A stretch of DNA of 64,000 bases from Planctomycetota bacterium. GTDB lineage: Bacteria > Planctomycetota > UBA1135 > UBA2386. Below the pieces are notes generated by a model, which saw only the letters and a list, made by a program, of their open reading frames with translations, was not told the origin of the DNA and did not search any database. This document shows positions 51,401 to 51,780 of this stretch, one piece after another. The DNA lies in contig DASUFY010000243.1 in assembly GCA_036274315.1 (NCBI GenBank), forward strand, positions 1,329-65,328, written 5' to 3'. A program made the position numbers and the translations under genes. Within the stretch, counting starts at the first letter, position 1, and the number at the start of each line of letters is the position of its first letter.

Positions 51401-51780
51401 CGCGGGGCCGACCTCAGACCCTGGACTGCCGCATGGGGTAGCTGGACCGACAAGGCGCTGAGGATCCAGTAGTGATGCTCGACGGTGCCCCCGGCGTTGG
51501 CGACCCGCTGGGAGATCGCAGCCTGATCGGTTGCAGCAAGCTGCCGCAGCGTGGCCAGCGCGGCCTGTCGCCCAGCCAGCGTCGGCGAGGCCCCGATGGC
51601 CTGCAACTCGGTCTGCAGCGCATAGCCTCGATCTTGCAGCTCGATGATCCATCGCTCGGTCCCAGGTGCGCTACCGGGAATGCCGTGCTCCTGCTGGGCC
51701 ACGAGACTCAGCGAGCCGATGGTGACGGCGAGGCACGCAGCGAGCGCCTGTGTGTGTGTGTGTGTGTGTGTGTGTGTCAT
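48451..51780 (-). CDS. Secreted subtilisin-like (S8) serine peptidase with a large C-terminal extension and the shared C-terminal module
   Basis: ATG at 51780 with a GGTGGAG SD. M(TH)4T tract, then signal peptide. Catalytic Asp VAVFDTGID, His HGTAMASIIAG, Ser GTSEAAAQVSGAAALY. Only the 3' 3330 nt of the 1913-aa ORF are real. Confidence 0.9.
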   Translation of the reverse strand: MTHTHTHTHTQALAACLAVTIGSLSLVAQQEHGIPGSAPGTERWIIELQDRGYALQTELQAIGASPTLAGRQAALATLRQLAATDQAAISQRVANAGGTVEHHYWILSALSVQLPHAAVQGLRSAPRVAHLVPVKARRANDAEAVRRRATGAARVSRRSTDETVALGGEMRPLGPPPPIDVSTNEFNHNVDAAWTILGGGGAQYRGAGARVAVFDTGIDEDVDGVPGTVLPHPAFIDNAGATRIDGIVRAQDIGTGNHADINICTIAGGVPYVGATGPFGFRPGRHNQAAAHGTAMASIIAGRAYTVGPVGNPVTSSRIGHVPDARLIDVACSSYEGLDARSRWIFTDDGYLGGIERLREYILANRPAGQTSAYVHVANLSIGGEPYPYHMISRALDALARDEDILIVTSCGNDWDTTEFSNGFYHGLAVGAVHAREPIDPMQGEPANFAFVPIVQSSPGPLFGDIERLYPDVCATGAGPGTPELVSGQWQRRFYYPRNFEDPQARDACLEMPGVDVLDISANASYPTDGYNVSPTRYNLGTSEAAAQVSGAAALYRGYRASQTTPASAEETRAAILLNVLGTYTQADGTAAEPAAQHTYTNRNRMGVGYVRDDLLAQFAVRDPQIYPLAQTAGLSVLNPQVDIAYDTLPGGKRYGVVACWRRALVDPGGDAVGEGDLPNIDLEVWYQGTLLARSASSANSYERLVFMAPWPSGGALAGVTLRLRLLSVPIGNQIIPVQVVARGFDTELDPQTTVPDPVHAATGQVTSAPAGAGCTMTSKAWQIDRIVPTGYQDAYGSAARAFTDGGNPGGQAYYYTHNGYDHGFDLEKVNGNAVPGMIHRVTIDVGEMGGPIDIGGLAFRTWAPFAPTNDMNVVVQMWEGPTVGGPTVWFAPPGGAITVASTVLRAPGPIGAEPRLDRFVVSVPFTTNFNYAGVSQLHIWIGTSTGSPFVVDGINDGSPSPYRSQYFYPNALGGSPLVATMEGFVPVIGLIAASVPAPRTPLLEVFGEPWSGTSVSTQFDWRLSQLPAAPQVWVLAFGTWQDPPALVPSCSIWLSNAQVLASGASAGGFAFGTISLPAGSVHEQFGLQMLLYPDRYSNALRISVGGGL
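51749..51777. repeat. Dinucleotide microsatellite (TG)14T, equal to A(CA)14 on the coding strand, immediately after the S8 protease start codon
   Basis: Counted directly from the sequence line at 51721-51780. Confidence 0.95.

Follow-up and report, generated by a model that had tools for sequence, protein, structure and literature searches.

A dinucleotide repeat tract in the signal-peptide coding region of a Planctomycetota subtilase gene as a probable slipped-strand ON/OFF switch

Phase variation driven by simple sequence repeats is textbook knowledge for Neisseria, Haemophilus, Campylobacter and Helicobacter, and to our knowledge it has rarely been documented in free-living environmental bacteria. 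The present analysis concerns an A(CA)14 tract at the 5' end of a gene for a protease of the peptidase S8 (subtilase) family. The gene lies in a stretch of 64,000 nucleotides of Planctomycetota DNA (GenBank assembly GCA_036274315.1, contig DASUFY010000243.1, positions 1,329 to 65,328), which is called the window below and to which all coordinates given without a contig name refer. Very probably the tract serves as the switch of a contingency locus of the simple-sequence-repeat type, turning the protease ON and OFF by slipped-strand mispairing. A perfect repeat was found at the same place, in the signal-peptide coding region, in 16 species-level loci, the window included. The eight motifs present, AC, CT, GT, TCAC, CTCTC, CTGTC, AGTCGCTC and TCCTCTTC, have unit sizes of 2, 4, 5 or 8 nucleotides (nt), and never 3, 6 or 9.

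Among the described systems, the opa genes of Neisseria have CTCTT repeats in the region coding for the leader peptide and switch at a rate of about 1e-3 per generation (PMC3960869). As in Opa, the repeat of the present locus lies within the open reading frame (ORF), in the signal (leader) peptide region, where its copy number would shift the frame of a secreted or surface protein. The unit is also similarly indivisible by three and the coding strand pyrimidine-rich, and the pentamers of two orthologous loci, (CTCTC)6 in L011 and (CTGTC)7 in L017, are nearly identical to the CTCTT of Opa. The present host is, however, a free-living high-GC member of the Planctomycetota from soil or wastewater and not a host-restricted pathogen, and the product is a subtilase of about 1100 amino acids (aa) with a coupled β-propeller gene and not an adhesin. 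One or two copies are present per genome, unlike the 11-member family of Opa.

The genes sabA and oipA of Helicobacter pylori have CT repeats at their 5' ends, and isolates are mixed 'on' and 'off' (PMC5371856). Like sabA, oipA and hopZ, 7 of the 16 orthologous loci studied here have CT/TC tracts, with 7 to 19 units. The window itself differs by its AC unit, and the gene family, phylum and ecology are all different; moreover, the ON and OFF states are here read from the assembly consensus alone.

The (TCAC)13.5 tract of the orthologous loci L007 and L026 resembles the tetranucleotide loci of Haemophilus influenzae, such as lic1A with CAAT and hgp with CCAA, where differing units are found at homologous genes. 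Tetranucleotide repeats near the 5' ends of ORFs of that species are reported to be translational switches (PMC2651432). Unlike in H. influenzae, a single orthologous position here spans units of 2, 4, 5 and 8 nt, and the host is again a free-living high-GC one. Slipped-strand switching has also been proposed for a secreted or cell-wall enzyme, the NanH3 sialidase of Gardnerella (bioRxiv 10.1101/2020.09.16.300947), and thus not for an adhesin or LPS gene; Gardnerella is a host-associated actinobacterium, unlike the bearers of the Planctomycetota locus.

Phase variation has been proposed to be recognisable in genomes by an over-enrichment of repeats near protein N-termini (PMC3315296). Prokaryotes generally suppress mono- and dinucleotide repeats, and the patterns under-represented in Planctomycetes include alternating purine-pyrimidine ones (PMC4060949). 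A recent centenary review of the field deals almost wholly with host-associated species (PMC11868660), and a search of the available literature library on phase variation, repeats and contingency loci together with Planctomycetes or Planctomycetota found no report for the phylum. The mechanism proposed here, a classical translational contingency locus, is in our assessment already known, and the phylum, the habitat and the gene family are what is new, with an uncommonly clear comparative pattern in addition.

The features at the 5' end of the protease gene in the window are the following (TRF, Tandem Repeats Finder; AF2, AlphaFold2).

51749–51777, minus strand: perfect A(CA)14 tract, 29 nt, codons 2–11 of the protease ORF (sequence and TRF)
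51778–51780, minus strand: ATG start of the protease; the tract and the 1109-codon ORF follow in its frame, i.e. ON as assembled (sequence, predicted start)
51784–51792, minus strand: Shine-Dalgarno-like AAGGTGGAG, 3–5 nt 5' of the ATG (predicted site)
48451–51780, minus strand: prepro-subtilase (peptidase S8) gene, 1109 aa, stop TGA at 48451 (Pfam, alignment, AF2, Foldseek)
51697–51780, minus strand: signal-peptide coding region, residues 1–28, MTHTHTHTHTQ followed by ALAACLAVTIGSLSLVA (translation, AF2 helix)
51708–51710, minus strand: TGA at codon 25, met after the gain of one unit, OFF (in-silico variants)
51671–51673, minus strand: TAG at codon 36, met after the loss of one unit, OFF (in-silico variants)

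The minus strand reads ATG A(CA)14 G from 51780 to 51748, in the context GAAGGTGGAGATC ATG A(CA)14 GGCGCTCGCT. TRF described the tract as an array of period 2 with 14.5 copies and 100% matches, the sole period-2 array among the 101 TRF rows for the 64 kb window. A regular-expression search found it to be the only perfect repeat of at least 16 nt with a unit of 1–9 nt in the window, and the runner-up dinucleotide runs were CG/GC runs of 10 nt. The GC content of the window is 70.4%. When the sequence was shuffled 200 times preserving the dinucleotides, the longest dinucleotide run was 10–20 nt, and a length of 28 nt was never reached.

Translated from the ATG, the tract gives the N-terminus M-T-H-T-H-T-H-T-H-T-Q, after which the hydrophobic ALAACLAVTIGSLSLVA|QQ follows. 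The beginning of the product, MTHTHTHTHTQ-ALAACLAVTIGSLSLVA-QQEHGIPGSAPGTERW, would thus combine a Thr-His n-region supplied by the repeat, a hydrophobic core and a cleavage-like site LVA|QQ, and the protease is presumably cleaved before QQ and secreted. With one unit removed in silico the frame ended in TAG after 35 aa, and with one unit added in TGA after 24 aa. All variants of ±1 and ±2 units ran into stops at codons 23–38, and those of ±3 units kept the frame. In the window, the stretch from the tract to the hydrophobic core of the signal peptide contains no start codon; the first in-frame one 3' of the tract is a GTG at codon 27, already past that core. The first-pass annotation had claimed the MTHTHTHTHTQ N-terminus leading into a signal peptide, a strong Shine-Dalgarno site placing the tract inside the ORF, the stops met after one-unit slippage and the singularity of the tract in a GC-rich window, and all of these were confirmed by the sequence, the translation, the simulated slippage and the repeat searches.

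A protein search produced 16 homologues besides the window protein, and DNA was then fetched for a limited set of orthologous loci (loci are denoted by L and proteins by P). The sequences come from metagenome-assembled genomes (MAGs) of Planctomycetota and from metagenome contigs, all of which are consensus assemblies. Orthologues are present in the runs SRR14092396, SRR14092393, ERR10641136, ERR13319395/378/468, ERR11024597 and SRR17604962 and in JGI 3300056625/3300056831, and the MAG sources include Danish and Hong Kong activated sludge (Fred_, Kalu_, HKST-). The habitats named for the clade are activated sludge, soil and other environments, and the window organism is from soil or wastewater. 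The repeat scan covered the region 5' of a conserved PGTERW motif. Dinucleotide-encoded N-termini were seen in P0002 (...TLTHTHTHR...) and P0007 (MGSSLSLSLSLSL...), and many other homologues were without a signal peptide. The tracts are situated 34–114 nt 5' of PGTERW, within the first 2–19 codons from the predicted start, and are listed below for each locus.

Window: (AC)14
L001: (CA)9.5
L002–L005, L024 and L028: (CT)12, (CT)15 and (CT)14, respectively
L006: (CT)19
L007 and L026: (TCAC)13.5
L008: (CT)16
L009: (CT)14
L010: (AGTCGCTC)5
L011: (CTCTC)6
L012: (GT)8
L013: (AC)8
L014: (TCCTCTTC)4.9
L017: (CTGTC)7
L025 and L029–L031: (CT)16
L032–L035: (TC)10
L039: (CT)7

Related loci of altogether 330 kb included 18 repeats of at least 16 nt at the protease 5' end and one elsewhere. 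The latter, GCTCGA ×3, has a unit divisible by three and is the sole repeat elsewhere in the overall material of approximately 390 kb. In a neighbour-joining tree the repeat-bearing loci formed one clade, and the outgroup S8 paralogues L018–L023 had no repeat. The peptides encoded by the tracts vary with the motif, including TH, SL, VC, SLTH and others. They consist chiefly of L, S, T, H, P, V, C, F and A, and only the 8-nt AGTCGCTC unit encodes R and Q, a composition compatible with a signal peptide and consistent with a translated tract. In several orthologues (the L002 species, L009 and L012) the repeat itself forms most of the hydrophobic core.

The phase state of each locus was called by taking the start codon nearest 5' of the tract and comparing its frame with that of the conserved ORF. 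This start codon is mostly preceded by GGAGG, AGGAG or AAGGTGGAG, a predicted Shine-Dalgarno site, and in the L017 orthologue, as in the window, the start is preceded by AAGGTGGAG. The window, L001, L002/L024 and L007 are in frame (ON), and L028, L006, L008, L009, L011, L012, L013, L014, L017, L025/L029, L032 and L039 are OFF, the last one determined by eye. At the species level the 16 loci are divided into four ON, 11 OFF and one unclear (L010), and the share of ON is close to the one-third that would be expected if the frame were not constrained by selection. The MAG HKST-UBA81 (JAGQRB01) has two diverged copies of the operon, L006 with (CT)19 and L009 with (CT)14, both OFF in the consensus; if these switched independently, four expression states would result.

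The OFF contigs were checked for other ways of starting translation in the main frame. In nine of the 13 checked, the stretch from the last stop 5' of the tract up to the tract has no main-frame ATG, GTG or TTG, so that these nine cannot be rescued by another upstream start; L010, which has none either, was counted separately as unclear. When the frame was restored by one unit, a plausible signal peptide appeared in the loci examined, for example MTSRQALSLSLSLSLCASLSVTLAAQA|GQG and MKTLLSSPLLSSPLRVARTLLAAVLAVVSSAATGPAQ. The OFF ORFs are open for about 1000 codons or more, and their catalytic residues are invariant. Between the OFF alleles L025 and L029, which belong to one species and are 96% identical, the synonymous distance dS was 0.124 and the non-synonymous distance dN 0.023, giving a dN/dS of 0.19. 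By these sequence measures the OFF protease genes are under purifying selection and are not pseudogenes, although their consensus alleles are unable to yield the full-length secreted protein; this would be expected if the gene is used intermittently.

Differences in tract length were found between closely related strains. Over 9,664 nt, L002 from an ENA assembly and L024 from a JGI metagenome share 99.907% identity and differ by three mismatches and a single gap. This gap of 6 nt lies in the tract, (CT)12 against (CT)15, and both alleles are ON. L028 (GCA_020051655.1), 98.6% identical to the L002 species, has the same 90-nt flanks and (CT)14, and is OFF, while four contigs of different runs all have (CT)12. 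Set against the three substitutions in about 9.7 kb between L002 and L024, the one tract event suggests that indels at the locus are thousands of times as frequent as substitutions at a single site, to be taken as an order of magnitude from a single observation. The contingency locus proposed by the first-pass annotation is therefore supported by the 16 loci with their eight motifs, frame-shifting units, ON and OFF states and signs of selection; the comparison of tract lengths among relatives that it proposed showed 12, 14 and 15 units in the L002 species and a single length in each of two other species.

The tract would act from its place in the signal-peptide region of the prepro-subtilase gene, after the start codon and before the hydrophobic core. 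Slipped-strand mispairing at replication would gain or drop CA units, and as the unit has 2 nt, changes of ±1 or ±2 units would shift the ATG out of frame with the remaining ~1100 codons so that translation ends at 22–37 residues (OFF). Changes of ±3 units would leave the gene ON, the Thr-His stretch merely becoming longer or shorter, and the window allele is ON. The window organism is expected to switch reversibly at a high rate, and the selective agent might be phages or predators acting on a protein exposed at the surface, or else the burden of making an exoprotease that is a public good.

Because the arrangement is maintained with differing motifs across a clade of Planctomycetota, it would be a selected property of the operon and not an accident of one genome. 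It appears somewhat likelier than the contrary that the operon is an ancient contingency module, kept throughout a clade of free-living uncultured Planctomycetota, in which the tract has been reinvented repeatedly with new motifs at the same codons. If so, localized hypermutation would be a regular strategy also beyond host-associated bacteria, as would bet-hedging with a protease that is secreted or at the surface, driven possibly by phage or protist pressure or by the economics of public-good enzymes, and switching should be visible directly in existing metagenome time series. Confirmation would show that contingency loci evolve and persist in high-GC environmental lineages, and would make tract length a marker of bet-hedging in time series of wastewater and soil metagenomes. 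It would also draw attention to an unstudied pair of protease and propeller, the expression of which is apparently costly or dangerous enough to be randomised, and to an annotation problem, gene callers giving truncated or spurious N-termini (P0001, P0003, P0012, P0018).

Several observations weigh against a frequently switching contingency locus. The tract is constant at (CT)16 in four contigs of one species, including the 96%-identical pair, and at (TC)10 in all four contigs shown, of six read, of another species; judged from these sequences the consensus alleles are not in constant flux, or else an OFF length is favoured. High slippage rates hinge on the mismatch-repair type of these Planctomycetota, and exact-protein look-ups, made with two start variants of the protease and with the product of the downstream gene, did not lead to a second assembly of the window organism. 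The in-clade loci L015, L016 and L027 have no repeat, and at least one orthologue, P0211, has an ordinary signal peptide. In L027 (Ga0209488_10000094, 5940–6010) a degenerate remnant, AAGTCACTCGCTCACTCA, encodes KSLAHSL at the same codons and resembles the TCAC and AGTCGCTC units of the relatives; with its ORF (P0097) truncated to 602 aa, this locus may be a locked-ON copy that decayed later.

The start codons and Shine-Dalgarno sites are likewise predictions, and at two loci they raise difficulties of their own. L010 (JADJPQ010000001.1, 5899–5960) has the good Shine-Dalgarno sequence AAGGAG, yet 5' of the tract none of the frames has an ATG, GTG or TTG, and GCT stands at the position of the window ATG. 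Its contig is named tig... and looks long-read derived, and the start may have been lost, may be non-canonical or may be hidden by an error in the assembly consensus. A TTG that directly follows the tract of L013 could yield a signal-peptide-bearing product independently of the tract. The n-region of the signal peptide in the window is, furthermore, without Lys or Arg.

The constancy of the consensus lengths across contigs of two orthologous species would also suit a tolerated coding microsatellite, i.e. a Thr-His stretch of the n-region that expanded by chance, is fairly stable and has no role in switching. The window allele is in frame as such an origin would have it, and N-termini in general accept indels and low complexity (PMC3315296). 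This explanation is nevertheless unlikely, since it is the presence of the repeat that is conserved and not the encoded peptide, which follows the eight motifs, and since no unit is divisible by three, the opposite of what it would lead one to expect. Furthermore, 11 of the 15 loci are out of frame and yet under purifying selection, and the rest of the ~390 kb is nearly free of such repeats, with one elsewhere. Even less probable is that the tracts or their lengths are artefacts of MAG assembly or binning, or that the OFF loci are decaying pseudogenes, which is hardly credible at all. It is true that every sequence is from a MAG or a metagenome contig, that repeats are prone to mis-assembly and that L027 has lost its repeat and had its ORF cut. 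The same position in the gene is, however, occupied in independent samples, studies and assemblers (MEGAHIT, SPAdes, long-read tigs, Logan), the tracts of 14–54 nt are below read length, an exact (CT)12 recurs in the four contigs from different runs, and decay is contradicted by the dN/dS of 0.19 and the intact ORFs of ~1000 codons.

Two further explanations are very unlikely. If the real start were 3' of the tract, the repeat would belong to the 5' untranslated region or the promoter and tune transcription or translation through spacing, Z-DNA or H-DNA, with no shift of the reading frame. The starts are predicted only, the NCBI and JGI calls of several orthologues do begin after the tract, and the TTG of L013 keeps a hydrophobic N-terminus; intergenic repeat-dependent phase variation is also reported for Haemophilus (PMC12721329). 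These downstream calls are, however, confined to out-of-frame loci, as gene finders faced with a frameshift would give, and in most loci a Shine-Dalgarno-like motif and a start codon are found directly 5' of the tract. In the window, the GTG at codon 27 would delete the signal peptide and no earlier start exists past the tract, and in the L002 species, L009 and L012 most of the core is supplied by the repeat itself. The other explanation, to which equally little credence is given, is that OFF alleles are expressed through transcriptional slippage or ribosomal frameshifting, the tract then setting a level and not a binary state. Such read-through would also account for most consensus alleles being OFF and yet under purifying selection, and recoding on repetitive sequence is reported to be known generally (PMC5009743). 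Intermittent ON phases explain the purifying selection equally well, though, and the length polymorphism of the near-identical strains is in the DNA itself. Transcriptional slippage, as far as we know, requires homopolymeric A/T runs, and none of the eight motifs is a homopolymer. Slipped-strand switching of the reading frame is thus the explanation retained here.

The protease matched the Pfam family PF00082 (Peptidase_S8) with an E-value of 1.3e-12 and 48 bits, the cut-off being 21.8. Both the family profile and the Asp-His-Ser order agree with a subtilase. D215, H292, N413 and S543 are invariant in the alignment of 17 sequences and are read as the catalytic triad and the oxyanion Asn. The AF2 model (predicted TM score, pTM, 0.74) included a low-confidence N-terminal helix at 11–25, a confident α/β propeptide unit at 41–139, a catalytic domain at approximately 190–580 and, making up the C-terminal half, a β-rich part of some 500 aa. 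In Foldseek the top matches were unprocessed pro-Tk-subtilisin and pro-subtilisin E, with TM(target) values of 0.65–0.73. The E-values were around 1e-11 for these two and for C5a peptidases, the streptococcal C5a peptidases matching more loosely. Judged by the model, the protein is a prepro-subtilase with a propeptide before the catalytic domain and a large C-terminal extension. An NCBIfam scan gave nothing further beyond a sub-threshold similarity to mycosins. A lipoprotein with 'LAAC' at residues 13–16 was considered and ruled out, as there is no hydrophobic stretch before the Cys.

Downstream of the protease, the following features were distinguished.

47090–48454, minus strand: predicted secreted Kelch-like β-propeller protein, 454 aa, with a C-terminal β-sandwich (context, homologues, AF2)
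48451–48465, minus strand: junction GGAGGTGGCCTGTGA, comprising the last protease codons G-G-G-L-stop, the Shine-Dalgarno sequence GGAGG and the GTG start (sequence)

The downstream protein has a signal-peptide-like N-terminus. The first-pass annotation had called it Kelch-like, and here the result was divided: the search against Pfam gave no Kelch match even at E-values up to 10, but distant homologues (e.g. P0036 and P0040) have PF07646, PF13418, PF13415 or PF24681. The AF2 model (mean per-residue confidence, pLDDT, 84) is all-β, with repeated four-strand units and a C-terminal sandwich. Foldseek matched it with sialidase, WD40 and RSL propellers at E-values of 1e-5 to 1e-8. The accurate label, on the strength of the model and the homologues, is 'β-propeller, Kelch-related by homology'. 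A homologue of this protein is located directly 3' of the protease in most of the repeat-bearing loci. The Kelch-like homologues P0027 and P0034 are paralogues with no adjoining protease and were uninformative.

The GTGA overlap of the downstream start with the protease stop, likewise reported earlier, was found with the GTG at 48454 and GGAGG before it. An xTGA stop/start overlap, usually within GGAGGTGGnCTGTGA, is present in 16 of the 17 orthologous loci, and the full junction motif GGAGGTGnnnTGTGA in 12 of the 16 with the overlap. Read in both frames, GGAGGTGGnCTGTGA doubles as the GGGL C-terminus of the protease and as the Shine-Dalgarno site and GTG start of the partner, a dual-coding constraint; the protease tail GGGL is so strikingly conserved because the same sequence serves as the Shine-Dalgarno site and overlapping GTG of the partner gene. 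The partner is probably co-expressed with the protease, and co-switching is plausible because the stop/start overlap is conserved in 16 of the 17 loci. In the OFF state, ribosomes would halt at about 25–40 codons, leaving ~3.2 kb of the mRNA untranslated and no terminating ribosome to re-initiate. The partner gene would then likely fall together with the protease through lost translational coupling and transcriptional polarity.

A C-terminal domain of some 100 aa is apparently common to the two proteins, located in the protease at approximately residues 1010–1106 (48451–48750) and in the partner at approximately 342–451 (47090–47430). Its motifs are PW.G ... C ... IP ... FxQQA ... SNAxR..G. 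The profile-profile comparison of the C-termini with hhalign gave a moderate signal (probability 54%, E-value 1.3e-4), and pairwise BLASTP between them was not significant (E-value 0.19). No named family matched the domain in the searches run; possibly it is a module by which both proteins are sorted or anchored.

In the NCBI record the window gene is P0001, 'MAG TPA: S8 family serine peptidase [Planctomycetota bacterium]', which starts from a GTG at 51975 and is 65 aa longer. This start was rejected as an over-extension, since it reaches 34 nt into the upstream gene and the Arg/Gly-rich stretch that it adds is not conserved; with either start, ATG 51780 or GTG 51975, the ORF includes the tract. 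The MAG of the window is represented by protein accession HEX5053217.1 (locus tag VFZ65_15685 region). The OFF alleles P0003, P0008, P0011, P0012, P0014 and P0020 are annotated from internal starts and without a signal peptide, and P0018 (L028) was called by the annotation pipeline PGAP from a spurious upstream start in a shifted frame. The faults cover 51781–51975 of the window and the loci L006, L008, L009, L025, L028 and L032. The annotation of these genes is systematically mishandled, and both the switch and the signal peptide are hidden by it.

Upstream of the protease two features were recorded.

51869–51912, minus strand: imperfect 8–9-nt tandem repeats GGAGCTTT / GAGCTTCA, 3–4 copies, in the 161-nt intergenic region (TRF, motif search)
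51942–54854, minus strand: upstream gene, 970 aa, N-terminal FHA and C-terminal CAP/YkwD-like (profile searches)

The GGAGCTTT / GAGCTTCA repeats, about 90–130 nt 5' of the protease start, may be a regulatory or promoter-associated element, their role in the switch being uncertain. A related GCTTTGGAGCTTTGGA motif is present at 757–779, close to where the window begins and likewise between genes. Within the 5' region of the protease, a consensus scan found no σ70-like promoter, the terminator scan remained at background level, and the Rfam scan gave only Bcj14 with an E-value of 0.51, which is not meaningful. The protein of the upstream gene has a long middle part rich in Ala, Glu and Arg. The genes 5' of the protease differ among L001, L002, L029, L032 and L039, and because of these differences between orthologous loci the upstream FHA/CAP gene is probably outside the module.

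Other repeats of the window were detected far from the protease. TRF found a 17-nt repeat, CTCGGTTGCT..., with 2.6 copies at 320–363, in the apparently non-coding beginning of the window. An 85-nt tandem repeat rich in 'GCGTCGCGCATC', with 2.6 copies and 78% matches, covers 507–726 and is also apparently non-coding. The third, at 63385–63445, has a unit of 15 nt (or 30 nt), GACCCTGCGGCTCCT, repeated in tandem with four copies and 80–87% matches, and is probably an in-frame coding repeat because its unit is divisible by three.

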